A stretch of DNA of 64,000 nucleotides, from contig DASSSU010000029.1 of assembly GCA_035708305.1 (NCBI GenBank), forward strand, positions 576 to 64,575, read 5' to 3'. This document shows, piece after piece, positions 3,898 to 63,920 of this stretch (positions are counted from its first letter, which is position 1; each line of letters starts with the position of its first letter). The DNA comes from Minisyncoccota bacterium. Lineage in GTDB: Bacteria; Patescibacteriota; Minisyncoccia; Phycocordibacterales; DASSSU01. Under the pieces are notes generated by a model, which saw only the letters and a program-made list of their open reading frames with translations, was not told where the DNA came from and ran no database searches. The position numbers were made by a program, and so were the translations under genes.

Positions 3898-4711
3898 AAA
3901 TGGACACATTCTTCTTGCAAGGAAGAATTAAAACGATCGATCCATTCTGCATTTGTAGAGTGAGAGACATGGTTCAGTCTCAAAAAGAGCCGGGCATTCG
4001 GGAGAGACCGAAAACCAGACGGAACAAAAGAAAGAGAAACTTTGAAAGGCTATTCACATTCAATTTTCAAAATATGATTAACAAAAACCGCTTCGGCGGT
4101 TTTTGTTTTGGTGCAATTTCCTTTAAATGTTATAATGCCACCGGGTTTTCTTCAATGGATATTTTGAGAAGGATATTTGAAAGTGAACGGTGGTCATCTT
4201 GCTTATGGAGTTTCGATTTCGTTCGTGATTGGCACGATGCTCATGCTCATTCTTCTTGGTCGGTAGAAATCTTTTGGAGGGGAAAATGTTCCAGCGATTT
4301 TTTCGCTCTCAGTTTTTCCGTTCGTGTGTTCGGAATCCTGTTGAAATGATCACGTCAATTTTGCTGTGGTTGGCAGTGGTTTTTGTCGTTTATTTTTACC
4401 ACCATTGGTAAAAAATGGCCGCGAGATGTTTTCTCGCGGCCTTTCGTTTGACCTTTACTGGTGTTCTGGCCTTCTTTTGGAAGAATGTTTTCTCGATTTT
4501 TTTCCTCGAGGGTCTTGTGAGGGATTCCTTTTCTCTTTTTCTTTTTCCCGTTTATCACGATGTCTCTGAGACATGCATGGAGCTCCTAAAATGAAAAGTT
4601 CGCACTCTCTCACTGAGAGGCTCTTCTTTTGAGAGAACCCTGAGGAATTCTAATGAAAATCAGGTTAAAATACAAGTGAGAGCCCTCAGTGATGGCATTA
4701 TGAAGAAAAAC

Positions 4712-12111: not shown

Positions 12112-13002
12112 ATGGAAACATCAAGAAAAATGAGGGTGATTACGCACAGCGGGCCTTTTCATACGGACGATGTATTTGCTGTCGCCTCGCTTGACCTGTT
12201 GCTTCAGGGGGATTATGAGTTAGTCCGAACTCGTGATCCGGAAGTGATCAAAACTGGAGATTTTGTTTTGGATGTCGGCGGGGTGTACGATCCGGAAAAA
12301 AATCTTTTTGATCACCATCAGGAAGGCGGCGCCGGAGAGCGGGATGGGATCCCGTACTCTTCACTTGGTTTAGTGTGGAAAAAATACGGGGCGGAAATTT
12401 GCCGTTCTCCAGAGGTAGCAAGAGAAATAGAAGACAAGCTTGTGTTGGCAACTGATGCGACGGATTGCGGGGTGGACATCATTCCCAAAAACGACCTCGG
12501 GGTGCACGTTCCACATATGTACGATGTGATCAAATCTTTCCGCCCTTCATGGAAAGAAGAGAAAAGTTTCGATGAAGGTTTTCAGGAAGCGCTTGCTTTT
12601 GCTAAGGGGTATCTTACGCGGAGTATTTTCTTGGCTCATACACTTTTGGAATCAAAAGAGAAAGTTTTGAGAGCGTATGAACAAGCTTCGGATAAACGGA
12701 TCGTGGTTTTTGAAAAATTTTACCCAAGCTTGGATGCACTCGAGAATTTTCCAGAAGTACTATATGTGGTGTATCCGTATTCTGGGAACCAGCATTGGGT
12801 TGCCCGGGCGTTTCGTAGCGAACGAGACAGTTTCAGGAATCGCAAAGATTTTCCAAAAGCATGGGCAGGAAAGACGAACGAAGAGCTTGCAAAAATTTCC
12901 GGTGTTTCAGACGCGATGTTTTGCCACAATGGTGTTTGGATCTGCTCGGCACGATCGAAGGAGGGGGCAATAGCACTGGCTACCCTCGCCGCTGACGCGT
13001 AA
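12112..13002 (+). CDS. MYG1/UPF0160 family metal-dependent hydrolase
   Basis: Conserved THSGPFHTDDVFA and DHHQ motifs. Confidence 0.75.
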   Translation: METSRKMRVITHSGPFHTDDVFAVASLDLLLQGDYELVRTRDPEVIKTGDFVLDVGGVYDPEKNLFDHHQEGGAGERDGIPYSSLGLVWKKYGAEICRSPEVAREIEDKLVLATDATDCGVDIIPKNDLGVHVPHMYDVIKSFRPSWKEEKSFDEGFQEALAFAKGYLTRSIFLAHTLLESKEKVLRAYEQASDKRIVVFEKFYPSLDALENFPEVLYVVYPYSGNQHWVARAFRSERDSFRNRKDFPKAWAGKTNEELAKISGVSDAMFCHNGVWICSARSKEGAIALATLAADA

Positions 13003-13116
13003 AAACGTTCATTTCTGGCACATTTCATCTTTTATTTTTGAATTCATCTGCCTGAGGCAGACTCACTTCGCAATTCCAAAAATAAACGCGAACTGCACTC
13101 AGAAATGAACGTTTTT
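13001..13116 (+). repeat. Family-A nested palindromic element (17-bp perfect outer inverted repeat, with an inner tctgcctgaggcaga hairpin core) starting in the stop codon of the MYG1 gene
   Basis: Outer arms aaaaacgttcatttctg and cagaaatgaacgttttt. A homologous empty copy lies at 46272-46341 on the minus strand. The 24-nt core ttcatctgcctgaggcagactcac is repeated at 29869-29892. Confidence 0.7.
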
Positions 13117-13267
13117 ATTTTTCAATACACTGGATGGGTTTTTTGGGAAAAACGTATTTTTACAAAAGGCACTGTCCCAAGGATGCTCGTCTGGTCTTGT
13201 GTCTTTTGTGAAGAAGTTTCTGGGAGGATATGGCTCTTTTTTGTAAATTGAGATAAGATATTTTCAA

Positions 13268-19204: not shown

Positions 19205-20011
19205 ATGATTTCTTTTTTCAAGGTTCATCGCAGGAAATCCCTTCTGTACCTCGGAGCGCTCGTACTTCTCGCCGCTTTTATATTTTCCATTTTCTTTCTC
19301 ACGGCTTCTTTAAACCGCGCTGATGCTGCTTCTACCGGAGCTGCCATTGTATCCGCTTCACCCTGTCATGCTTTCACTTCTTCCAATTTTCCTTTGAATC
19401 AGCCGGGATATGAAAATTTTGGTGTTCCATATGACGTAACCACATCGTCCAACTCTTTGCTCATTTCCATTTTGTGCTATAGCGATCAGTACTACATGAA
19501 TGTTGGGTTTGGTAACACCCAAAATTACATTTGGAAGCAGGCGTACATCACCACTCCTTCCGCTGGGTATGCCGCGTATCAAAGCGCCGTGAGTCACGGC
19601 AATGATGCCTGGTGTGCCTCTACCACTACTAAAAACAGCGATGGAACATATCTGCAAAAATGCACGAAAAATGGCGCATCCTTCACCCTCTCCTGTCCGT
19701 ATGAGATGAGTCCCAGTGAAAACTATGTCGGAGAAGGGGCGGTGGGATTTCAAGACAGCTGTGTGTACCAAGGCAGTAAGCTCGAGTGGAAGCCAGTGAC
19801 ACTTCAGGGTCCAAATTCCAACCAAGGATGGTTCATTGGCAACGCGTACGCGCAAATCACCAAAGACAGCAGTTACCCTGCCACTGATCCCACATATTTC
19901 TTGGCATATACTTGCAGCTGGACTGGACAGTGGAAGTGCGGGTGCCGAACTGCATCGACCTGTACTGCAGAGGGGCAATGGCAGCTTCAGGAAGTTCCTC
20001 CTGAAAAGTAA
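19205..20011 (+). CDS. Signal-anchored, Cys-rich (~15 Cys) secreted protein, hypothetical
   Basis: N-terminal TM helix, then a Ser/Thr/Cys/Trp-rich ectodomain; no family recognised. Confidence 0.5.
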   Translation: MISFFKVHRRKSLLYLGALVLLAAFIFSIFFLTASLNRADAASTGAAIVSASPCHAFTSSNFPLNQPGYENFGVPYDVTTSSNSLLISILCYSDQYYMNVGFGNTQNYIWKQAYITTPSAGYAAYQSAVSHGNDAWCASTTTKNSDGTYLQKCTKNGASFTLSCPYEMSPSENYVGEGAVGFQDSCVYQGSKLEWKPVTLQGPNSNQGWFIGNAYAQITKDSSYPATDPTYFLAYTCSWTGQWKCGCRTASTCTAEGQWQLQEVPPEK

Positions 20012-20022
20012 AGCATGATCCC

Positions 20023-20733
20023 ATGACCAATGAAATCCGCACTGTCCTTATAAAACTTTCAGGAGAAGCACTTGCTCGTGATGGAGAAAAATATTCCACT
20101 CAGGTTCTGGAGAGCATCGCTTCACAGATCTCCAAGCTTTTGGAAAAAAATTTAAAGATTGCTCTTGTGTGCGGTGGTGGAAATCTGTTTCGGGGAAGGG
20201 ATCTGGTAGATTCACATCTTGCTATCTCACGCGCAACAGCAGACTACATTGGCATGCTCGCTACGCTTCAGAACGCCCTCGTGCTTCGTGATGATTTTGA
20301 AAGTAAAGGAATCCCTACACGAGTTCTTTCGGCCATCAGCGTTCCTCAGCTTTGTGAGCCGTATATTCCAAACCGAGGGAAACGGCACATGGAAAAAGGG
20401 CGTGTGGTTATTTTTGCAGCAGGATTGGGCGTTCCTTTCTTTACTACTGATACTACAGCGGTAGAACGATCGCTTGAGATCGGCGCAGATCTTCTGGTTT
20501 TGGCCAAGCACGGCGTAAACGGACTCTACACGGCGGATCCCAAGCACGATCCCTCTGCAGAAAAGATTCACCAAACAAGCTGTACAGAAATTCTTGAGAA
20601 AAACTTCAAAGTGGCAGATGGTTCGGCTATTGCTCTGGCAAAGGACAACAACCTTCCCATGAAAATCGTTGCCGTGGAAGATATTGAAAACATTTTGGAT
20701 GAAAACACCGGATCGTATGTTGAACCGCACTAA
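20023..20733 (+). CDS. pyrH: UMP kinase
   Basis: LIKLSGEAL ... CGGGN motif. Confidence 0.9.
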   Translation: MTNEIRTVLIKLSGEALARDGEKYSTQVLESIASQISKLLEKNLKIALVCGGGNLFRGRDLVDSHLAISRATADYIGMLATLQNALVLRDDFESKGIPTRVLSAISVPQLCEPYIPNRGKRHMEKGRVVIFAAGLGVPFFTTDTTAVERSLEIGADLLVLAKHGVNGLYTADPKHDPSAEKIHQTSCTEILEKNFKVADGSAIALAKDNNLPMKIVAVEDIENILDENTGSYVEPH

Positions 20734-22798
20734 TCTTAAAACACTGACAGAAAACAATCTCTTTCCATCCAAAGCGCCCAAAATCCCTTCCTCGCTTCAG
20801 GTGCACGGAATAGATCTTCCAGATGATTACGCTTGGCTTCGGGACAGAGACAATCCGGAAGTGAAACGGTACCTGGAGGAGGAAAATTCCTACACGGAAA
20901 AAATGATGCAGAGCAAGGAGCATCTTCAGGAAATGCTCTTTCGGGAGATGAAAGCCCGGATCAAGGAAAACGACCAGTCTGTTCCGGTACAAATAGACAA
21001 TTATTTTTATTATTTTCGCACGGAAAAAGAAAAGCAATACGCTTTTTTCTGTCGCAAGAAAGATTCTCTTCAGTCGGAAGAAGAAATCATCCTTGACGAA
21101 AACCAGGAAGCGGAAGGGCATGAGTTTTTTGGCCTTGGGTTTTTTGAAGTGAGTCCCGATCACAAAAAGCTTGCATACTCTTTCAGTCTCGACGGTTCGG
21201 ACCAGTATACGGCGGTGGTGAAAAACCTCGAGTCAGGGGAACTCTATCCGGAAAAAATAGAAAACGTAAGCACTTCGCTTGAGTGGAACAACGATTCCAA
21301 ACAGTTTTTTTATACCACGCTGGACGAGACACTGCGCCCGAACCAAGTTTTCCGTCATGCACTTGGAGAATCACCCGATCAAGATGTGCTCATTTACCAA
21401 GAGCCGGATGAGAAATTTTCGGTTGGTGTATCCAAAACCCGCAGCAAAAAATATATTTTTATTGACATCGGAAGCAAAATGACCACGGAAGTGCGGTATT
21501 TTGATGCTTCAAGTGACGGTTCTGGTGCTGCGATTTTTCATCCACGCGAGTCCAGCCATGAGTACTTCATCGACCATCGCGGTGAAGACTTCTACATTTT
21601 GACCAACGATCAAGCCGAGAACTTTCGCCTGATGAAAACGCCGGTGTCTCAGACCGGCAAAGAACACTGGCAGGAAATCATCCCGCACCGCGAGGAAGTG
21701 AAGCTTTCGGGGATGGATCTTTTCTCTCGCCACATGGTGGTGTACGAACTCAGAGAAGGGGTGGAGAGTCTGAAGGTGCGGAATTTGGAAACCGACGAAA
21801 TACACGTGATTGATTTTCCTGAAGAAGTGTATTCCGCGGGAGGTTCCGCAAACCCCAACTTCGATACCAACATTTTCCGTTTTTCGTACACGTCTTTTAT
21901 CACGCCGGCTTCTGTTTTTTCCTACAACATGGATACGCGGGAAAGGGAGCTTCTGAAAGAGGATGAAGTTTTGGGAGGGTACGATGCGAACGAATACGCG
22001 TCGGAGAGAATCTACGCTGATGCATCGGACGGTACCCGGATCCCAATTTCTGTGGTGTACAGGAAAAGCCTGAAGGCAAACGGCACCAATCCGCTTTGGC
22101 TTACGGGTTACGGTGCCTATGGCATTATGATCCGGCCGGGGTTTAGTAAAACGAGACTCTCGCTCCTTGATCGTGGATATATTTTTGCGGTGGCACATGT
22201 GCGCGGCGGAGGAGAAGGAGGCGAGCCATGGCGCAACGGCGGCAAGTTTCTGAAAAAGAAAAACACGTTTACGGATTTCATTGCTTGTGCGGAAAAGATC
22301 CTTGAGAGCGGCTACACGACGCGCGAAAAACTGCTCATTTCCGGAGGGAGTGCTGGGGGCCTTTTGATCGGTGCCGTGCTCAACATGCGCCCGGATCTTT
22401 TCGGGGCGGCGATCGCGGACGTTCCGTTTGTTGACGCGCTTCGAACCATGCTCGACCCCACGCTCCCACTTACCGTGGGCGAGTACGAGGAGTGGGGAAA
22501 TCCCCAAGAGAAAGAATATTTTGATGCGATCCGTGAGTATGCGCCGTATGAAAATGTTCGGGTGCAGGATTACCCGGCGATACTCGTGCAGACCGGCTTG
22601 AATGACACGCGAGTTGGCTACTGGGAACCGGCGAAGTGGGTAGCGAAACTCCGCGAGATGAAGACAGATAAAAATCCGCTTCTTTTCAAAATACAAATGG
22701 GTGCAGGACATTCCGGCGCCTCAGGACGCTACGATGCTCTCAAAGAAATTGCTTTCGAGTACGCATTTGCACTCAGCATCTTTGGTGTTGAAAAATAG
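20717..22798 (+). CDS. S9A serine peptidase (oligopeptidase B / prolyl oligopeptidase family)
   Basis: The N-terminal beta-propeller region begins DDYAWLRDRDNPEV. The catalytic domain carries GGSAGGLL and a C-terminal His. The start is ambiguous (20669, 20699 or 20717) and overlaps the pyrH end. Confidence 0.8.
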   Translation: MLNRTNLKTLTENNLFPSKAPKIPSSLQVHGIDLPDDYAWLRDRDNPEVKRYLEEENSYTEKMMQSKEHLQEMLFREMKARIKENDQSVPVQIDNYFYYFRTEKEKQYAFFCRKKDSLQSEEEIILDENQEAEGHEFFGLGFFEVSPDHKKLAYSFSLDGSDQYTAVVKNLESGELYPEKIENVSTSLEWNNDSKQFFYTTLDETLRPNQVFRHALGESPDQDVLIYQEPDEKFSVGVSKTRSKKYIFIDIGSKMTTEVRYFDASSDGSGAAIFHPRESSHEYFIDHRGEDFYILTNDQAENFRLMKTPVSQTGKEHWQEIIPHREEVKLSGMDLFSRHMVVYELREGVESLKVRNLETDEIHVIDFPEEVYSAGGSANPNFDTNIFRFSYTSFITPASVFSYNMDTRERELLKEDEVLGGYDANEYASERIYADASDGTRIPISVVYRKSLKANGTNPLWLTGYGAYGIMIRPGFSKTRLSLLDRGYIFAVAHVRGGGEGGEPWRNGGKFLKKKNTFTDFIACAEKILESGYTTREKLLISGGSAGGLLIGAVLNMRPDLFGAAIADVPFVDALRTMLDPTLPLTVGEYEEWGNPQEKEYFDAIREYAPYENVRVQDYPAILVQTGLNDTRVGYWEPAKWVAKLREMKTDKNPLLFKIQMGAGHSGASGRYDALKEIAFEYAFALSIFGVEK

Positions 22799-22826
22799 AA
22801 TGAGAAGCTTTTCTTTTCATGTTTGA

Positions 22827-22896
22827 GAAAGCCTTCGGAGTCATTCTTTTCTCGTGAAGTCCACAAACTTCGAAAAGAATGACTCCGAAGGCTTTC
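22827..22896 (+). repeat. Family-B palindromic element copy 1 (25-bp perfect inverted repeat around the conserved loop cgtgaagtccacaaacttcg)
   Basis: Arms gaaagccttcggagtcattcttttc and gaaaagaatgactccgaaggctttc, lying between the peptidase stop and tsaC. Confidence 0.7.
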
Positions 22897-22925
22897 TTGG
22901 ATAAAACGCTGATAAAAATAAAAAC

Positions 22926-23495
22926 ATGGAACAGGATAATTTTCAGGAAATCTTAAAGAAAGGCGGTATTGGTGTGCTGCCGACCGATACGCTGTATGGT
23001 CTGGTGGGAAGTGCGTTTTTACCGGAAGCGGTGGAACGAATTTATGAAGCTAAAAGGCGAGACAAGTCAAAGCCTTTGATTGTGCTTCTTTCAAATACTC
23101 AAGACTTGGAGTGGTTTGGTGCGGATGTTTCTTCTTTTTGGAAAGAACACGAAAAGCGGCTTGCGGAAATTTGGCCGGGGAAAGTGAGCGTGCTTTTTCC
23201 GTGCAATGATGAAGTATTCTCGTATTTGCACCGAGAGACAAAAGAAATTGCATTCCGTCTGCCGGACGTGGAATTTCTTCGCGGGCTGCTCGCGGGAACC
23301 GGCCCACTTGTTGCCCCATCGGCCAACCCGGAAGGGCTTCCGCCGGCAAAAAACATCGCAGAAGCAAAAGAATATTTTGGCGACAGGGTAGATTTTTACG
23401 AAGATGGCGGAGAGATGGTGTCGGACCCCTCAACACTCATCCGTTTCGAAGGCGGGGAAGTGAAGGTGCTCCGTGAAGGCGCGGTAAAGTTCTGA
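22926..23495 (+). CDS. tsaC: L-threonylcarbamoyladenylate synthase (TsaC/YrdC family)
   Basis: GVLPTDTLYGL motif; single-domain YrdC of about 189 aa. Confidence 0.8.
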   Translation: MEQDNFQEILKKGGIGVLPTDTLYGLVGSAFLPEAVERIYEAKRRDKSKPLIVLLSNTQDLEWFGADVSSFWKEHEKRLAEIWPGKVSVLFPCNDEVFSYLHRETKEIAFRLPDVEFLRGLLAGTGPLVAPSANPEGLPPAKNIAEAKEYFGDRVDFYEDGGEMVSDPSTLIRFEGGEVKVLREGAVKF

Positions 23496-23502
23496 TTCAT
23501 CA

Positions 23503-23570
23503 AAAATCTCTCCGGTTGCCCTTTTTTCGTGAAGCCCACAAACTTCAAAAAGGACAACCAGAGAGATTTT
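23503..23570 (+). repeat. Family-B palindromic element copy 2 (imperfect ~24-bp inverted repeat around cgtgaagcccacaaacttca)
   Basis: Arms aaaatctctccggttgccctttttt and aaaaaggacaaccagagagatttt, with G-U-compatible mismatches; it starts 8 nt after the tsaC stop. Confidence 0.65.
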
Positions 23571-23811
23571 GTATTTCAAGCTACCTGTGGAAAAAAGCTT
23601 GCATTTTTTGAAAAAAGGGGTAGATTAAAAAGGTATGAAGAAACACGGAAACAGCGTCATTATTCTACCGAGAACGACTGCTTCAGCCGGTGTTTCCGCA
23701 TACAGGTAGAATTTCCGAGAAAATCAGAAAAGCTACCAAAAAGAGAACCCGGCACAGCGCCGGGATTTTTGTTCTTTCTTGTTCTTTGTAAAGAAAAAGG
23801 AAAGGTGATAT

Positions 23812-24039
23812 ATGGCTATTCTGGATTTTGATGCCATTGATCGACGCAAATCCCTCGCCAATAAACTGCACAACACTGCAATGACCATTACTGCTGCCTT
23901 TTACAAGGGGAGAAATATACCACCAAACCTTTTCCAAAAATTTTTTGATTTGGAAAGAAAGGTGGAAGGGAGAATATCGCCTAGGTTGCGTTTCATGTGT
24001 GCAGATGTAGTAAAAATTCACAACAATAAGCAGAAATAG
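23812..24039 (+). CDS. Small hypothetical protein (75 aa)
   Basis: ORF with an AAGGAAAGGTGA SD-like motif upstream, in a gene-poor 1.2 kb stretch. Confidence 0.3.
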   Translation: MAILDFDAIDRRKSLANKLHNTAMTITAAFYKGRNIPPNLFQKFFDLERKVEGRISPRLRFMCADVVKIHNNKQK

Positions 24040-24048
24040 GAGTATGTC

Positions 24049-24282
24049 ATGGTTCAGAAAACGTTTCTTACTCCGGAAGAAATAAAAGCACAAAGGCAAT
24101 CGGAATTTCGTACTCTCTGCTGTACGCAAATTATTCAGCAAGCACACCAAAGGCTGCCAATTTCTGGGACATTGTTTCAGCGGGCGCTTTATAAACCTGG
24201 GGCAGTAGACCCAGCACTCTTGGCAGAAGTTGAGCAAATACACCGGGAACGAAATCCGGTGAACAAAAATTCGTTTAGGTAA
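24049..24282 (+). CDS. Small hypothetical protein (77 aa)
   Basis: AGGAG lies 9 nt upstream of the ATG, with a strong terminator at 24304-24346 downstream. Confidence 0.3.
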   Translation: MVQKTFLTPEEIKAQRQSEFRTLCCTQIIQQAHQRLPISGTLFQRALYKPGAVDPALLAEVEQIHRERNPVNKNSFR

Positions 24283-24303
24283 AATTCACCTAAACTGATC
24301 ACA

Positions 24304-24346
24304 ACACGCCCCGTACGATGCGGGGCGTTTCTTTTTGAGTTTTTTC
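24304..24346 (+). terminator. Rho-independent terminator
   Basis: Stem acgccccg/cggggcgt plus a T-run. Confidence 0.6.
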
Positions 24347-24389
24347 AAATTTTTGTAATGCTTGCTTTTTAAAAGAAAGAAAGTAAGAT

Positions 24390-24535
24390 AGAGGCATGCA
24401 AGGAAGCACGAGAACCGCCTTTACGTGGTTTGCTTCAAAACTGGAGAAATTTTCCGGGGTTCCTTGCAGGTGAGTAAAAAAAGCAAAAACCAACCATCGA
24501 AGCCCGGGAAAATTCCCGGGTGTTTTTGTTTTTGG
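24390..24535 (+). ncRNA. Candidate structured small RNA bounded by two terminators (9-bp stem tgcaaggaa/ttccttgca enclosing ~55 nt, then a cccggg hairpin terminator)
   Basis: Intergenic region with no ORF; stems read directly from sequence; it ends at a terminator spanning 24500-24533. Confidence 0.25.
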
Positions 24536-24579
24536 GGCGAAAAACTCAGACAAGTAGATCAAAGAAAAGGAGAGAGAAA

Positions 24580-24795
24580 ATGCACGAGCTGGATCAGATA
24601 AAAATGCAAAAACAGTTTCAAAAAATTTTCAAAGAAAGCTGTTTTGAAATTTTTGATCGACATCGTGTCGGAAGAAAAATTCCGGAAGGCCTTTATTTGG
24701 AGATTGAACGTGTGTGGCCGTTGTTCAGCCCTGGTGTTCTTGACGAGTGGTATTATGAGCACGTCCAGCTTTACAAAAAAGGGGCATTTGATTAG
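24580..24795 (+). CDS. Small hypothetical protein (72 aa)
   Basis: AAAGGAGAGAG lies directly upstream of the ATG and a terminator lies downstream. Confidence 0.3.
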   Translation: MHELDQIKMQKQFQKIFKESCFEIFDRHRVGRKIPEGLYLEIERVWPLFSPGVLDEWYYEHVQLYKKGAFD

Positions 24796-24814
24796 TTCTT
24801 TTTGACAGACATTT

Positions 24815-24848
24815 GGGTCCCGCGAAAAATGCGGGGCCTTTTATTTTT
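24815..24848. terminator. Bidirectional rho-independent terminator shared by the small ORF on the plus strand and prmC on the minus strand
   Basis: Stem ggtcccgc/gcggggcc, with a T-run on one side and an A-run on the other. Confidence 0.55.
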
Positions 24849-29815: not shown

Positions 29816-29823
29816 CCTTAAAA

Positions 29824-29934
29824 CTTCCAGCTTTGGCGAATTTCTTTGTCAGAACGTGAATTTTCCTGTTCATCTGCCTGAGGCAGACTCACAGCCAAAT
29901 TCACGTTCTTCCTCAAACTTCATCCAAATCTGAA
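29824..29934 (+). repeat. Family-C framed palindromic element downstream of nrdA (conserved frame, with a 12-bp inverted-repeat insert carrying the Family-A core)
   Basis: Frame cttccagctttggcgaatttctttgt ... cttcatccaaatctgaaa. The insert gaacgtgaattt ... ttcatctgcctgaggcagactcac ... aaattcacgttc shares its core with the element at 13043-13066. Confidence 0.7.
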
Positions 29935-30003
29935 AGTTTTATTTTGCAAGATTCTGAAAGTAGTTGCATACACAATAAAAATTATTCATTCACACTTACA
30001 TCC

Positions 30004-31038: not shown

Positions 31039-31041
31039 AAG

Positions 31042-31156
31042 CTTCCAGATTTGGCGAATATCTTTGTTGCGAGGCAAAGTGCTTGCTCACCTTACTTATC
31101 CGTAAGGCTCGCGGCGACACTTTGCTTCGCGCCTCGATCTTCATCCAAATCTGAAA
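31042..31156 (+). repeat. Family-C framed palindromic element downstream of nrdB (same frame as the nrdA copy, with an unrelated nested-hairpin insert)
   Basis: Frame cttccagatttggcgaatatctttgt ... tcttcatccaaatctgaaa. The insert has gcgaggcaaagtg/cactttgcttcgc and ccttac/gtaagg stems. Confidence 0.7.
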
Positions 31157-31302
31157 CCTTTTACTTTTGCAAAAATCTGGTTATAAATAAAAAACTCTAG
31201 GATTAGAGTTTTTTATTTTAGCGGGGAATTCCGAAAAAACCCTTTATTTTCAAGCAAAAACAGGGAAGAGAAGTTATCCACAGGTTTTCTTGGGGAAAAT
31301 GT

Positions 31303-34458: not shown

Positions 34459-34501
34459 GGAACAAAGAAAAATGGCAGAAAATATTTTTTTAAAAAACAA
34501 A

Positions 34502-34530
34502 AACCCGACCAAATGTGATCGGGTTTTTAA
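34502..34530. terminator. Bidirectional terminator hairpin
   Basis: acccga ... tcgggt stem flanked by A- and T-runs. Confidence 0.45.
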
Positions 34531-34549: not shown

Positions 34550-34759
34550 CTATTTTCTGTTGAAACTTTTTTCTTGGAGCTTCTGGTTGATTATTTTTAG
34601 TTCGAAATAGAGTCCACAAAAGAGCAGGAAAGAACCAGTGAGCGTCGATGTGATGATCTCTTCTGTCGACGGATGAGAAAACAAGGCTTCAAAAACCATA
34701 TTTCCCAAACTTCCCATTGCGCTGAGGAAAAAACACCAAGAAAGAAATTCTTTCATCAC
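34550..34759 (-). CDS. Small membrane protein, hypothetical
   Basis: 69-aa ORF with two hydrophobic helices. Confidence 0.3.
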   Translation of the reverse strand: MMKEFLSWCFFLSAMGSLGNMVFEALFSHPSTEEIITSTLTGSFLLFCGLYFELKIINQKLQEKSFNRK

Positions 34760-34830: not shown

Positions 34831-34886
34831 GGAAAATAGCTCCATGTCCTTTTCGAAGTTTGTGGGCTTCACGAGAGCTATTTTCC
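34831..34886 (-). repeat. Family-B palindromic element copy 3 (reverse orientation; conserved core cgtgaagcccacaaacttcgaaaaggaca)
   Basis: On the plus strand it reads ggaaaatagctc...cgaagtttgtgggcttcacg...gagctattttcc; the 12-bp outer inverted repeat differs from those of copies 1 and 2. Confidence 0.65.
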
Positions 34887-46049: not shown

Positions 46050-46087
46050 CCACAAGAAAAACCCGTTGAAGCGGGTTTTTCTTGTGG
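46050..46087. terminator. Perfect 16-bp palindromic hairpin (ccacaagaaaaacccg / cgggtttttcttgtgg), a bidirectional terminator
   Basis: Read directly from sequence. Confidence 0.55.
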
Positions 46088-46271
46088 AATTTTAACGAGA
46101 CTACCATCCGGACCAGTCCATATTCTTCCCAAATCTTGAAAGGAATTTTGTTTACGAAAAATCCTGTTTTCTTTCAATCTAGCGCTCCAAGGCCGCTCGG
46201 CCGGTCTTACTGTCTTGAAGGAAAACAGGATTTCCCGCTTACGAACAAACTACTTCCAGTCTCTTGCAAAG

Positions 46272-46341
46272 AAAAAACACCCATTTCTGAGTGCAGTTTT
46301 CGCCTAAGAACGACGAAATGTGCCAGAAATGGGCGTTTTTT
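46272..46341 (-). repeat. Family-A element, the short 'empty' form, starting in the stop codon of rpmB
   Basis: Minus-strand sequence aaaaaacgcccatttctggcacatttcgtc...gcgaaaactgcactcagaaatgggtgtttttt; it aligns with both arms of the 13001-13116 copy, with compensatory stem changes. Confidence 0.7.
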
Positions 46342-51191: not shown

Positions 51192-51217
51192 TTTTAGATT
51201 AAAGAGAAACTAAAAAC

Positions 51218-51246
51218 AAAAGCACCTCCTTGGGTGCTTTTGTTTC
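51218..51246 (+). terminator. Rho-independent terminator
   Basis: Stem aaagcacc/ggtgcttt plus a T-run. Confidence 0.5.
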
Positions 51247-59732: not shown

Positions 59733-59778
59733 AGACAAAAAAACAACCCCGGAAAATACGAGGGTTGTTTTTTTATTT
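59733..59778. terminator. Bidirectional terminator hairpin downstream of the glycoside hydrolase gene
   Basis: aacaaccc ... gggttgtt, with a 12-nt loop and flanking A/T runs. Confidence 0.45.
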
Positions 59779-61128: not shown

Positions 61129-61503
61129 GTGAGTGCTGTTTTAACATTGAATAATCTGAGAATCTTGTCCTCGTGTTGTTCTGGAAGACGCGTGGAAAGC
61201 AGGATTCTTACCCGAATATCAATATTTTATCGGATTTTTCTGAAGTTTTCCTGAAATTTTGTAAGAATTCCGTGTTTTTTCCGTCTCATGCGGTAGCGCA
61301 AAAGGGCGATCTTAATGCAGGAAAAACAGTCTGCCGTAAGATTACTCATATTTTGCCGGAGGTTTTTCAAAAAATCTCCCGAGTTCTTTCACAGTTTTTA
61401 GTTTCTAATCTTGTTCAGCAGCGAGAGGAATCTCTAAATGGCTTACCCATTTACTCGCGATATCAATGTTCTTGATCGCGGCTCAAATTCTTTGCGCATT
61501 GCC

Positions 61504-62622
61504 ATGGTCGCTCCTTTGGTAGAGAGCGTGCCGCCGAAGTATTATGGCGGAACGGAGCGAGTCATGGATTGGCTCATAAAAGCGCTTCTTCAAATGGGGC
61601 ATCGTATCACGCTTTTTGCGAGCGGTGATTCTGTTACTGGCGCAGAGCTTCATGCTTGTGTACCGAAAAATCTTCGCGAGATGTGGAAAGAAATTCCGGA
61701 TGATCAGAAACCGGAAGATTACGTCGCGTGGCAAAAGCGCTACACCAAGAAAATGCTTGACGATGTGTACCTCCTCGCCATGAATGGCGAGTTTGATGTT
61801 GTTCATTTAAATGTGGACGACCCATATGCGTTTGAGCTTTTCTCAGACACAAATCTTCCGTGCGCGGTTGTTATGACCATGCATGGTCGGCAGGATTATA
61901 AGTGGCTCCACGCTGCATACAGGAAGCATCCGCTTCCATTGGTATCAATTTCCAATAATCAGCGTGAGTTAATGGTTCCAAACGCCAACTGGGCAGGAAC
62001 CGTATACCATGGTTTGCCGGAGGATTTGTATCAAGTAGAAAATGCGGAGCAAGGTGAGTACTTGCTTTTCATTGGACGCACCAGTCCCGAAAAAGGACTG
62101 AAACAGGCGATAGAGATTGCCGTAAAGGCAAACATGGAGTTGAAGATTGTTGCGAAGATTGATCCAAGTGAGGAAGATTACTTTTGGAAGGAAATCCAAC
62201 CGCTAATTTTCGAAAACCATTCCCTGGTTAAATTCTGTGGTGAGAAGGGAGATGCTGAAAAGCAGGAACTTCTCTCTGGCGCACGGGCGCTTCTTTTCCC
62301 GATTTGTTGGCCCGAACCGTTTGGCCTTGTGATGATCGAAGCCATGGCTACCGGCCGGCCGGTGATTGCTTACCGGCATGGTTCTGTGCCGGAGGTTCTC
62401 CAACATGGAGAAACCGGATTTATCATCAAGGATGACGCGGAAGCTGCGGCTTTGTCGGTTGAGATGGCAAAGCACCTCAAACCCCAAAACATCCGTCGGA
62501 TTTTTAAAGATCGATTTTCCAATGTTCGTATGGCGGAAGGGTACGTGGAGATTTACAAAAAATTAATCTCCGAGAACCAAGTCGCAAGAAAGCCAAAAGC
62601 TTTCACCAAACTGGCAGGATAG
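61504..62622 (+). CDS. Glycosyltransferase family 4, tandem paralog 1
   Basis: MVAPLVESVPP..YGGTERV N-terminus and EPFGLVMIEAMATGRPV C-terminal GT-B motif; an in-frame upstream ATG at 61438 is less likely. Confidence 0.75.
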   Translation: MVAPLVESVPPKYYGGTERVMDWLIKALLQMGHRITLFASGDSVTGAELHACVPKNLREMWKEIPDDQKPEDYVAWQKRYTKKMLDDVYLLAMNGEFDVVHLNVDDPYAFELFSDTNLPCAVVMTMHGRQDYKWLHAAYRKHPLPLVSISNNQRELMVPNANWAGTVYHGLPEDLYQVENAEQGEYLLFIGRTSPEKGLKQAIEIAVKANMELKIVAKIDPSEEDYFWKEIQPLIFENHSLVKFCGEKGDAEKQELLSGARALLFPICWPEPFGLVMIEAMATGRPVIAYRHGSVPEVLQHGETGFIIKDDAEAAALSVEMAKHLKPQNIRRIFKDRFSNVRMAEGYVEIYKKLISENQVARKPKAFTKLAG

Positions 62623-62707: not shown

Positions 62708-62735
62708 TTTCCAATTTACTTTGATATGGTATAAT
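62708..62735 (+). promoter_or_regulatory. Candidate promoter with an extended -10 (TGgTATAAT) for GT4 paralog 2
   Basis: The tataat at 62730-62735 is preceded by tgg; the track ORF ATG at 62721 lies inside this promoter, so the real start is 62784. Confidence 0.35.
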
Positions 62736-62783
62736 CCACCTATCAATTTGTTCAATCACAAAAATATCAAGCTCCGTATCGCC

Positions 62784-63920
62784 ATGGTTGCTCCTTTGGT
62801 AGAGAGCGTACCGCCGCAGCTTTATGGCGGAACTGAGCGGTTTGTGGCCTGGCTGGTAAATGCTCTTGTTGCCATGGGGCACGATGTGACTCTCTTTGCG
62901 AGCGGAGATTCACAAACTTCCGCCCGTCTTCACAAGTGTTCGCCGAAAAACCTTCGTCGTATGTACGAAGATCTCAAGGAAAAGCCTGCTGACTATATCG
63001 CATGGCAGAAACAAGCGACTCATGCGATGCTTCAGGAAGTCTTTAAGCACGTCATGAACGGCGAGTTTGATATTGTTCACTTAAATGTGGATGATCCCGA
63101 GGCTTTCAGACTCTTTTCTTCAAAAGAACTTCCATGTCCGGTGGTGATGACCATGCACGGACGCTTGGATCTTGAAGGATTGCGGGCAGCGTATCAGGAA
63201 CATCCGCTTCCGTTGGTTTCCATTTCGAACGATCAGCGGACGCATTTTAAAATGTCCAACGCCAACTGGGCGGGCACGGTATACCACGGCCTACCGGAAG
63301 ATCTCTATCAGCTGGAAAACGAAACACTGGGGGACTACTTGCTTTTCATCGGAAGAGTGAGCAGGGAAAAAGGATTGGAGAGTGCGATTCGGATTGCTGG
63401 TGAAGCGCACATTCCTCTGAAAATCATTGCCAAGATCGACCCGACGGATCGGGAGTATTATCGGGAGAAAATACATCCTCTCATTTTCGGCAATTCGAAT
63501 ATCGAGTTTGTTGGTGAGAAAAACGACCAAGAAAAACAGAAGTACTTGAACAGAGCACGTGCACTTATCTTTCCGATCAACTGGCCGGAACCGTTTGGCC
63601 TGGTGATGATCGAAGCCATGGCTACCGGCCGGCCGGTAGTCGCCTTTGGGTGTGGTTCTGTTCCAGAAGTATTGAAGCACGGTGAGACTGGCTTTGTGGT
63701 AGAAAAAGAAAATTACGAAGACAAAATCCGTGAGGCGATTCACTTTGTAAATGCCTGCAAAAATCTTTCTCCTCAAAAGATCCGCAAAATTTTTCTCAGA
63801 GATTTCACGGCAAAAAAAATGGCGGAAGGATACGTGGAGATTTATCAAAAACTTTGGCAAGAACGCAGAGCAGGACAAAAAACGCAGAACTTGTGGATGA
63901 AAAAAGGAAAAATTGTATAA
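62784..63920 (+). CDS. Glycosyltransferase family 4, tandem paralog 2
   Basis: It has the same architecture as paralog 1, and stretches of near-identical nucleotide sequence (for example ccgtttggcctggtgatgatcgaagccatggctaccggccggccgg). Confidence 0.75.
   Translation: MVAPLVESVPPQLYGGTERFVAWLVNALVAMGHDVTLFASGDSQTSARLHKCSPKNLRRMYEDLKEKPADYIAWQKQATHAMLQEVFKHVMNGEFDIVHLNVDDPEAFRLFSSKELPCPVVMTMHGRLDLEGLRAAYQEHPLPLVSISNDQRTHFKMSNANWAGTVYHGLPEDLYQLENETLGDYLLFIGRVSREKGLESAIRIAGEAHIPLKIIAKIDPTDREYYREKIHPLIFGNSNIEFVGEKNDQEKQKYLNRARALIFPINWPEPFGLVMIEAMATGRPVVAFGCGSVPEVLKHGETGFVVEKENYEDKIREAIHFVNACKNLSPQKIRKIFLRDFTAKKMAEGYVEIYQKLWQERRAGQKTQNLWMKKGKIV

Follow-up and report, generated by a model that had tools for sequence, protein, structure and literature searches.

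Several families of short hairpin repeats and of palindrome-targeting elements have been described. Repetitive extragenic palindromic (REP) elements and REPINs are mobilised by RAYT transposases of the Y1 HUH type (PMC3116915, PMC3333891, PMC3733652), and REP palindromes are themselves entered by IS1397 and ISKpn1, which are insertion sequences (IS) of the IS3 family, and by IS110-family elements (PMC1525189, PMC3184786). PMC5861425, citing Elhai 2008, reports that a small dispersed repeat (SDR) of the Nostocaceae uses the HIP1 palindrome as its insertion site, and the repetitive hairpin-forming elements (RHEs) of sponge mitochondrial DNA (PMC2800124) and the palindromic repeats of Volvox (PMC2670323) have been described as invading or selfish elements. 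The repeat content of Patescibacteria (the candidate phyla radiation, CPR), whose genomes are tiny and tightly packed, is little described. Here, we examine a repeat family, Family B, in a 64,000-nt stretch of a Minisyncoccota bacterium genome (assembly GCA_035708305.1, contig DASSSU010000029.1, positions 576 to 64,575; hereafter the window), which carries a ribosomal RNA (rRNA) operon and housekeeping genes. Copies 1, 2 and 3 of the family are called B1, B2 and B3.

A sequence-only reading of the window had picked out three copies of an almost identical core, and this observation is real. The 25-nt core pattern CGTGAAGYCCACAAACTTCRAAAAG matches at 22853-22877 and 23528-23552 on the plus strand and at 34849-34873 on the minus strand, where zero matches are expected. 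No fourth match is present in the window even at three mismatches, none occurs in 100 shuffles, and a looser 16-mer with three mismatches gives extra matches in the window at chance level only. The cores differ at only one or two of 30 positions, pairwise similarity among the copies reaches 28-32 nt, and B2 and B3 have 30 nt in common at 96.7% identity, including the 3' GGACA. All three copies are intergenic in a window of which intergenic DNA makes up 12.2% (p ~0.002).

Every core has an inverted repeat of its own, at whose dyad it lies. The B1 hairpin (22826-22897, plus strand) has 26-bp perfect arms at 22826-22851 and 22872-22897 (26/26 paired, 100%) around a 20-nt centre; B2 (23503-23570, plus strand) has 24-nt arms at 23503-23526 and 23547-23570 (22/24 paired, 92%); and B3 (34831-34886, minus strand) has 12-bp perfect arms at 34831-34842 and 34875-34886 (12/12 paired, 100%) around a 32-nt centre. 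The arms share no sequence with one another or with anything else in the window, which confirms the earlier description of flanking repeats that differ completely and still pair. When the three copies are aligned, 10 stem pairs are changed on both sides yet keep pairing, a number that 0 of 500 shuffles reach, and sliding the partners by 1-3 columns leaves at most one such double-changed pair. The sequence-only reading had looked to such an alignment for stems that covary, and the double-changed pairs are indeed there. The arms, however, although they pair, have no relation between copies and no second occurrence in the window; they were therefore never homologous, and pairing between unrelated sequences, as opposed to diverged homologues, is not evolutionary covariation.

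The repeat unit is approximately 26-32 nt long and reads (CTTTTY)-TCGT-GAAG-YCCACAAA-CTTC-RAAAAG(RA..). Alone, it folds into a short bulged hairpin consisting, from 5' to 3', of a CTTTTY lower stem, a 4-nt TCGT bulge, a GAAG upper stem, an 8-nt YCCACAAA loop and the return strand CTTC-RAAAAG, which is one continuous helix strand opposite CTTTTY...GAAG. The unpaired bases number only 12 (TCGT and YCCACAAA). The core is thus only in part a loop and is not presented whole in one, as had been thought; the loop is YCCACAAA alone, accompanied by the TCGT bulge. In B1, the unit occupies 22850-22879 on the plus strand (TCTCGTGAAGTCCACAAACTTCGAAAAGAA), with the bulge at 22852-22855, GAAG at 22856-22859, the loop TCCACAAA at 22860-22867, CTTC at 22868-22871 and a GAAAAG tail at 22872-22877 that pairs with CTTTTC at 22846-22851. 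The B2 unit (23521-23556, plus strand) reads CTTTTT-TCGT-GAAG-CCCACAAA-CTTC-AAAAAG-GACA, and the B3 unit (34844-34873, minus strand) is CGTGAAGCCCACAAACTTCGAAAAGGACAT. B1 closes its lower stem with a C-G pair and B2 with a T-A pair. In B3, where the 5' CTTTTY is missing, the 3' tail GAAAAGGACATG forms an unpaired internal loop, beyond which the 12-bp arms start; the GGACA tail common to B2 and B3 is accordingly paired in the former and unpaired in the latter.

The whole hairpins fold at -53.3 kcal/mol for B1 (z = -11.3) and -22.5 kcal/mol for B3 (z = -3.9). For B2, the folding energy is -40.5 kcal/mol on the minus strand versus -29.9 kcal/mol on the plus strand, which carries the core. The two B2 mismatches, C23513/A23560 and C23519/A23554, had been described as compatible with G-U pairing; this is correct for the opposite strand, but on the core strand both are C-A. 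The Y in the tip behaves in the same way with respect to strand. The outer arms of Family B begin A-rich and end T-rich, as do the canonical terminators of this genome.

By their defining features, these copies are not members of the REP, MITE (miniature inverted-repeat transposable element) or attC classes. Stem sequence is not conserved among B1-B3, only the tip; neither the ends of the unit nor those of the arms carry the GTAG/CGTC head of REP elements (PMC3733652), the bulge being TCGT; and no RAYT gene is present among the approximately 60 window open reading frames (ORFs) scanned against Pfam. The only candidate for MITE terminal inverted repeats is the 6-bp CTTTTY/RAAAAG of B1 and B2, the 5' half of which is missing in B3, and the window contains no IS. 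The outer ends of the three copies are unrelated, with no conserved R'' (RYYYAAC) or R' (GTTRRRY) ends of the attC type, and it is the centre that is conserved; the window has no integrase, and the copies are dispersed, with one inverted.

Outside the window, scans for the 18-19-nt core in the GTDB (one genome for each of 185,579 species), in JGI/ENA metagenome contigs and in IMG/VR returned only single coding-sequence matches without hairpin context, in approximately the number expected by chance. A BLAST search of phage and plasmid collections gave nothing relevant to Family B. At the gathering thresholds of Rfam 15, only rRNA and tRNA genes pass in the window, and at permissive E-values the only matches around the copies fall below threshold and are to generic models of long hairpins (miRNA precursors). 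Inspection of the copies by eye revealed no hammerhead core, k-turn or box C/D pattern, and their complementarity to rRNA, tRNA and other window sequence is limited to chance 9-12-mers. A Phycisphaerales gene start that shares 23 nt with B1 (CTCGTGAAGTCCACAAACTTCGA, encoding VKSTNFEF..) was judged a chance similarity, with about 0.1 such cases expected among the matches. In the Phycisphaerales contigs L001, L006, L020, L030 and L031, the gene start with a 23-nt match to B1 is GGAGGAACTCGTGAAGTCCACAAACTTCGAGTTCCTCC, which encodes VKSTNFEFLRAKW.. and is itself flanked by a 10-bp inverted repeat; we regard this as a coincidence.

Evidence for additional copies in the same sample comes from an independent assembly of run SRR25158513, obtained from Logan and compared with the window. 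Logan contigs are built from a k=31 de Bruijn graph, and contigs 100% identical to the window break in all three Family B copies: L054 (19491-22879) ends in B1, L055 (23523-27041) starts in B2, L046 (31071-34873) ends in B3 and L056 (34844-45067) starts in B3. The last two overlap by exactly 30 nt (k-1), the sequence of the B3 unit, which is the signature of a branch node common to another locus; by these boundaries, the B3-type repeat is exactly 30 nt long. Because no 30-mer of any copy is repeated inside the window, we infer from this behaviour of the graph that each of the three subtypes has at least one further copy elsewhere in the sample. For the B1 30-mer at 22850-22879, the predicted outside copy (at least one) would diverge at 22849, within CTTTTC, consistent with a locus-specific 5' complement. 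The predicted sibling of B2 would share at least four T's 5' of TCGT.

Two other causes of the breaks were considered and rejected. Inversion of the loop between flip and flop states would break contigs where arm meets loop and not at a point 8 nt inside the 3' arm, and a chimera formed by multiple displacement amplification (MDA) or by fold-back is contradicted by the unique sequence on both sides and by the base-for-base agreement of two independent assemblies. Logan contigs also split outside Family B. A 58-nt segment (19463-19520) within ORF 19205-20011, which has no Pfam match, separates L062, ending at 19492, from L054, starting at 19491; by the same reasoning it would be repeated elsewhere, and it suggests a paralogue or strain variant in the sample.

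Family B is not the only module of the window found at the tip of unrelated palindromes. The window contains 13 perfect inverted repeats of at least 12 bp where 0.2 are expected, and 8 of the 13 have loops of at least 12 nt. A 24-nt sequence, the Family A core (TTCATCTGCCTGAGGCAGACTCAC), is identical at 13043-13066 and 29869-29892 and occupies the apex of a different perfect inverted repeat at each; the Logan contig L061 starts at 29863, implying a third copy outside the window that shares TTCCTG and the core. The first of these cores is the innermost part of a compound hairpin 3' of a MYG1-family gene (12999-13117, plus strand), inside an inner inverted repeat, shell E (reverse-complemented) and a base stem. 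The second is enclosed by a 13-bp perfect inverted repeat and by shell C in a compound hairpin 3' of nrdA (29819-29941, plus strand). Shell C recurs around a different inner module 3' of nrdB (31039-31165, plus strand), where 31063-31100 would itself be repeated elsewhere, and shell E recurs around a short centre in a terminator-like hairpin (46272-46341, plus strand) that lies 3' of the minus-strand gene rpmB. Modules thus act as guest or as host, as expected if units inserted repeatedly at the tips of hairpins. Samples of 20 kb from each of two related genomes contain ordinary terminators and no comparable nested hairpins.

The shells themselves show some further detail. The two shell C hairpins are approximately 125 nt long, with outer arms that are alike but imperfect (26 nt at 92% and 18 nt at 100%) and wholly different inner modules; the 38-nt segment 31063-31100, at which L061 stops (31092) and L046 begins (31071), acts like a repeat in the Logan graph although the window has only one copy of it. 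Shell E consists of CATTTCTGAGTGCAGTT...GAAATGTGCCAGAAATG and is found at 46282-46331 with the short centre and, as its reverse complement, at 13010-13107 with Family A inside. Between shell E and the A/T tracts are 3 bp that differ at all three positions between copies (GTT/AAC versus ACC/GGC, the latter with one mismatch).

We propose that Family B is a miniature hairpin repeat, restricted to this lineage, which spreads at the level of DNA and takes its arms from local sequence, a reading to which we would assign about an even chance. Near-identical cores combined with unrelated arms argue that the arms were never part of a common transposed sequence and derive from each locus, and it is these unrelated arms, together with multi-copy status and nesting, that lead us to favour a DNA-level repeat. 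The unit would have spread to several intergenic sites of this Paceibacterota genome, in each case to the dyad of a longer palindrome. Of the possible routes we favour, tentatively and at less than even odds, one of two steps, both of which are conjectural. A unit would first land in the tip of a terminator-like hairpin, giving the state seen in B3, with 12-bp arms and an unpaired 3' tail. Template switching within the hairpin (quasi-palindrome correction) might then copy the 3' tail of the unit into the 5' arm and so produce the state seen in B1 and B2; the B2 arm would in this way have become complementary to GGACA, the tail that is left unpaired in B3. The resulting long hairpins may secondarily act as terminators or as stabilisers of mRNA 3' ends.

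A number of points weigh against this proposal. Only three full copies can be read, with the additional ones deduced from assembly breaks, and the unit of the B2 subtype seems to carry its lower stem along with it. Plain insertion predicts leftover loop bases, and B1 and B2 have none, which is why an additional, conjectural zipping-up step is invoked; loop insertion alone would need perfect palindromes without a spacer as targets. For any choice of unit boundary in B1-B3, the flanks are inverted and not direct, so a target-site duplication is lacking. Pfam scans of the approximately 60 window ORFs found no gene for a transposase, integrase, HUH nuclease or reverse transcriptase. There is no empty site either; the organism is without a recorded close relative, and the 90%-identity clusters of 10 window proteins consist of its own sequences only (10/10). 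Finally, each copy is oriented as its upstream gene, although with n = 3 this is weak evidence. GC skew stays positive from one end of the window to the other despite the inversion of B3, so orientation follows transcription and not replication, and we rejected a replication-linked orientation on these grounds; co-orientation with the upstream gene would fit a transcription-linked function too. The sequence-only reading had raised the possibility of a small mobile palindromic element that re-forms its stem from target sequence, and of its two suggestions this one fits better: the multi-copy status, the arms unique to each locus and the nested modules speak for it, and the lack of an empty site and of a transposase speaks against it.

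The alternative that survives best would have the unit build its palindromes itself. It would insert anywhere, and its own hairpin would serve as a fold-back primer from which one flank is copied in inverted form, so that the arms are made de novo. Such copying would account for pairing that reaches the unit without leftover loop bases in B1 and B2 and is complete in B1 (26/26), where the arms mirror even an internal TTCG/CGAA motif. It would also suit the arms, which exceed this genome's canonical terminators in length and fall below them in GC content, and a B2 5' arm that is complementary to the unit's own GGACA tail. B3, however, cannot have been primed in this way, because its tail is unpaired and its arms begin 12 nt away; fold-back from GAAG/CTTC would mirror the TCGT bulge as well, which is not seen; and shells C and E recur with different inner modules, which needs insertion at the apex. 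We consider self-priming unlikely. We are similarly doubtful of its extension to the rest of the window, under which the unit, with no enzyme of its own encoded nearby, would move and would template inverted copies of its flanks by fold-back or template-switch synthesis. It would thereby make new terminator-like hairpins in a minimal CPR genome, and the nested hairpins of families A, C and E would be the products of successive rounds.

A selected recognition hairpin is less probable still. Under this explanation, the loop and bulge would be bound by a protein or an RNA, for example as a regulatory or stabilising motif associated with 3' untranslated regions or terminators, and the stems would be free to vary as long as they pair. 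The loop and bulge are indeed kept while the stems vary, the closing pair of the lower stem changes from C-G to T-A, and the orientation with the upstream gene, found in 3/3 copies under a constant direction of replication, would be expected. B1 lies 27 nt past the stop codon of an S9 peptidase gene (22798) and 28 nt ahead of the start of tsaC (22926), and B2 begins 7 nt past the tsaC stop codon. The two plus-strand copies thus flank tsaC (22926-23495, identified by the Pfam family Sua5_yciO_yrdC), as had been noted, and they are the only terminator-like structures after their genes. A terminator scan requiring a loop of 3-8 nt listed none of the three copies in the regions that hold them; 3' of the hairpins, there is ATTTTGTATTT after B2 and only CTTTCTT after B1.

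On the other side, B3 lies between the canonical terminator of a hybrid histidine kinase gene (34924-34905, minus strand) and a promoter-like site (34814-34786, minus strand) that precedes a small membrane ORF. Being behind a terminator and before a promoter-like site, B3 need not be transcribed. The core is absent from all other genomes scanned and from Rfam, the neighbouring genes (S9 peptidase, tsaC, hybrid histidine kinase) are functionally unrelated, the mismatches are C-A on the sense strand, and the C-G/T-A change follows subtype by inheritance and did not arise as an independent compensation. Even then, with non-homologous arms, the copies would still have needed spread at the DNA level. 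The suggestion in the sequence-only reading of a protein-binding or RNA-recognition loop accordingly finds little support.

The canonical terminators to which Family B is compared are found at 4080-4107, 31185-31218, 34499-34528, 46050-46087, 51214-51245 and 59737-59774. They consist of an A-tract, a short GC stem and a T-tract, with perfect inverted repeats of 12-16 bp and loops of 4-12 nt, and have a bidirectional look. The small ORF downstream of B3 (34550-34759, minus strand) has 69 codons' worth of protein (69 aa) and a GTG start, probably encodes a two-helix membrane protein, and has its own terminator in addition to the promoter-like site. To judge from the run of protein accessions (113 and 114 on either side), it is seemingly unannotated in the NCBI record. 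Neither this ORF nor the small ORFs adjoining B2 have a Pfam or PHROG match.

It is very unlikely that Family B is an attC-like site for cassette recombination, at which a recombinase would read one strand in its folded, single-stranded form, with TCGT extrahelical, and genes would enter alongside. Each copy follows a gene in that gene's orientation, and attC logic is echoed in the bulged bases and in the fact that one strand folds better than the other. The comparison of gene order is also suggestive. The nearest tsaC is 67% identical, and its locus (contig L053) is the only syntenic relative; there, pyrH, tsaC and prmC are packed without spacers, with pyrH overlapping tsaC. Relative to this locus, the window contains two insertions, an S9 peptidase gene and a block of small ORFs spanning 1.3 kb, whose positions coincide exactly with B1 and B2. 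However, this synteny rests on a single relative at 67% identity, in which the housekeeping gene tsaC has the same position; the attC end motifs are missing, conservation is central and not terminal, and the window is without an integrase or a cassette array.

Two segments distinguish the window from the relative. The S9 prolyl-oligopeptidase gene (20669-22798), between pyrH and tsaC, represents a lineage-specific gain or loss and ends at B1. The 1.3-kb block (23571-24840), absent from L053, contains three small ORFs of 71-77 aa (23812-24039, 24049-24282 and 24580-24795), each with its own ribosome-binding site and canonical terminator and none with a Pfam or PHROG match; by eye, the three are weakly alike. 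There is also a possible 24-codon ORF (23636-23710) behind a promoter-like TTGCAT-N16-TAGATT.

A double-stranded DNA operator, with GAAG-N8-CTTC as the site of a dimeric transcription factor upstream of tsaC, the small-ORF block and the small membrane ORF, is highly improbable: the 4-8-4 inverted repeat in the centre and the promoter-like hexamers 3' of each copy (for B3 by scan, for B1 and B2 by reading the sequence) would suit it, but the distances to the putative -35 boxes differ (~21, 47 and 35 nt), and it explains neither the asymmetric conservation over 30 nt, including bulge and tail, nor the location at the tip of long palindromes. An identity with parS was considered, given the CGTGAA in the core and a ParB gene at a distance of 2.5 kb from B3, and was rejected because the fit to parS is poor and the window holds no parS-like site beyond chance.

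Two further repeats lie in other parts of the window. At 46159-46233, a 19-bp inverted repeat (95% complementary) surrounds a structured centre of 37 nt, GGCCGCTCGGCC; it is present in the window as a single copy, within a 1.5-kb gene-poor stretch that contains rpmB and a possible SET-domain ORF (by eye only). Tandem paralogous family-4 glycosyltransferase genes at 61438-62622 and 62721-63920 form the direct repeats D1 and D2, which are 72-77% identical and share a 35-nt exact stretch, the only exact repeat of at least 30 nt in the window.

If our proposal is correct, this 30-nt unit, which multiplies and comes to lie exactly at the dyads of palindromes unrelated to each other, would rank with the smallest of known mobile repeats. 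Such a unit would raise the questions of how such a unit moves without an obvious enzyme and whether long terminator-like hairpins are born or lengthened by template switching. Assemblies with short k are broken by Family B units at points that can be predicted; the units could be used as strain markers, and they flag sites of gene gain. If the family is only a REP-like passenger, it would be an ordinary feature of one rare lineage.

The systems closest to Family B each share some of its properties. Like the copies described here, attC sites are imperfect palindromes 3' of genes, read as folded single strands whose extrahelical bases define the strand, but their outer R''/R' boxes are conserved and their centre is variable, the opposite of Family B. 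IS1397, ISKpn1 and the IS110 family offer a precedent for the targeting of hairpins in which the insert is left between two palindrome halves; they are approximately 1.4 kb long, contain transposase genes and target one REP family, whereas the Family B guest is approximately 30 nt and its hosts differ. The hairpin repeats of organelles are also families of small elements that lie between the genes of a compact genome, and no enzyme is known for them. They differ in being organellar and GC-rich with conserved stems, and we imply no relation by descent.

For the B3-to-B1/B2 step, the nearest parallel is quasi-palindrome templated mutagenesis by intramolecular template switching, reportedly described by Ripley in 1982 and by the Lovett laboratory at a hotspot in E. 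coli thyA. It copies one arm onto the other and perfects the hairpin, as this step requires; known events fix a few bases, whereas Family B would need 9-10 nt to be templated. REP and REPIN elements are likewise short, extragenic, non-autonomous hairpin repeats, often just 3' of genes, with secondary roles in termination or mRNA stability. In REP elements, the stem and the GTAG/CGTC head are conserved and the loop varies, whereas in Family B the tip is conserved and the stems are locus-specific.

By analogy, Family B would work most like the very small dispersed repeats of the Nostocaceae, with a further resemblance to REP and REPIN elements. The Nostocaceae repeats belong to another phylum and share no sequence similarity with Family B, and the target of SDR5 is one fixed 8-bp palindrome, compared with the 12-26 bp locus-specific palindromes found here. 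Yet SDR4-6 are also dispersed units well below 50 nt, non-coding and mostly intergenic, and SDR5 is reported at a palindromic site, which would give it inverted flanks. Elhai et al. 2008 (Genome Res 18:1484) reportedly found SDR4-6 units nested inside other repeats too. In both size and dispersal, Family B is comparable to the cyanobacterial SDRs, a class defined by a 21-27-nt unit and by mobility at orthologous sites.

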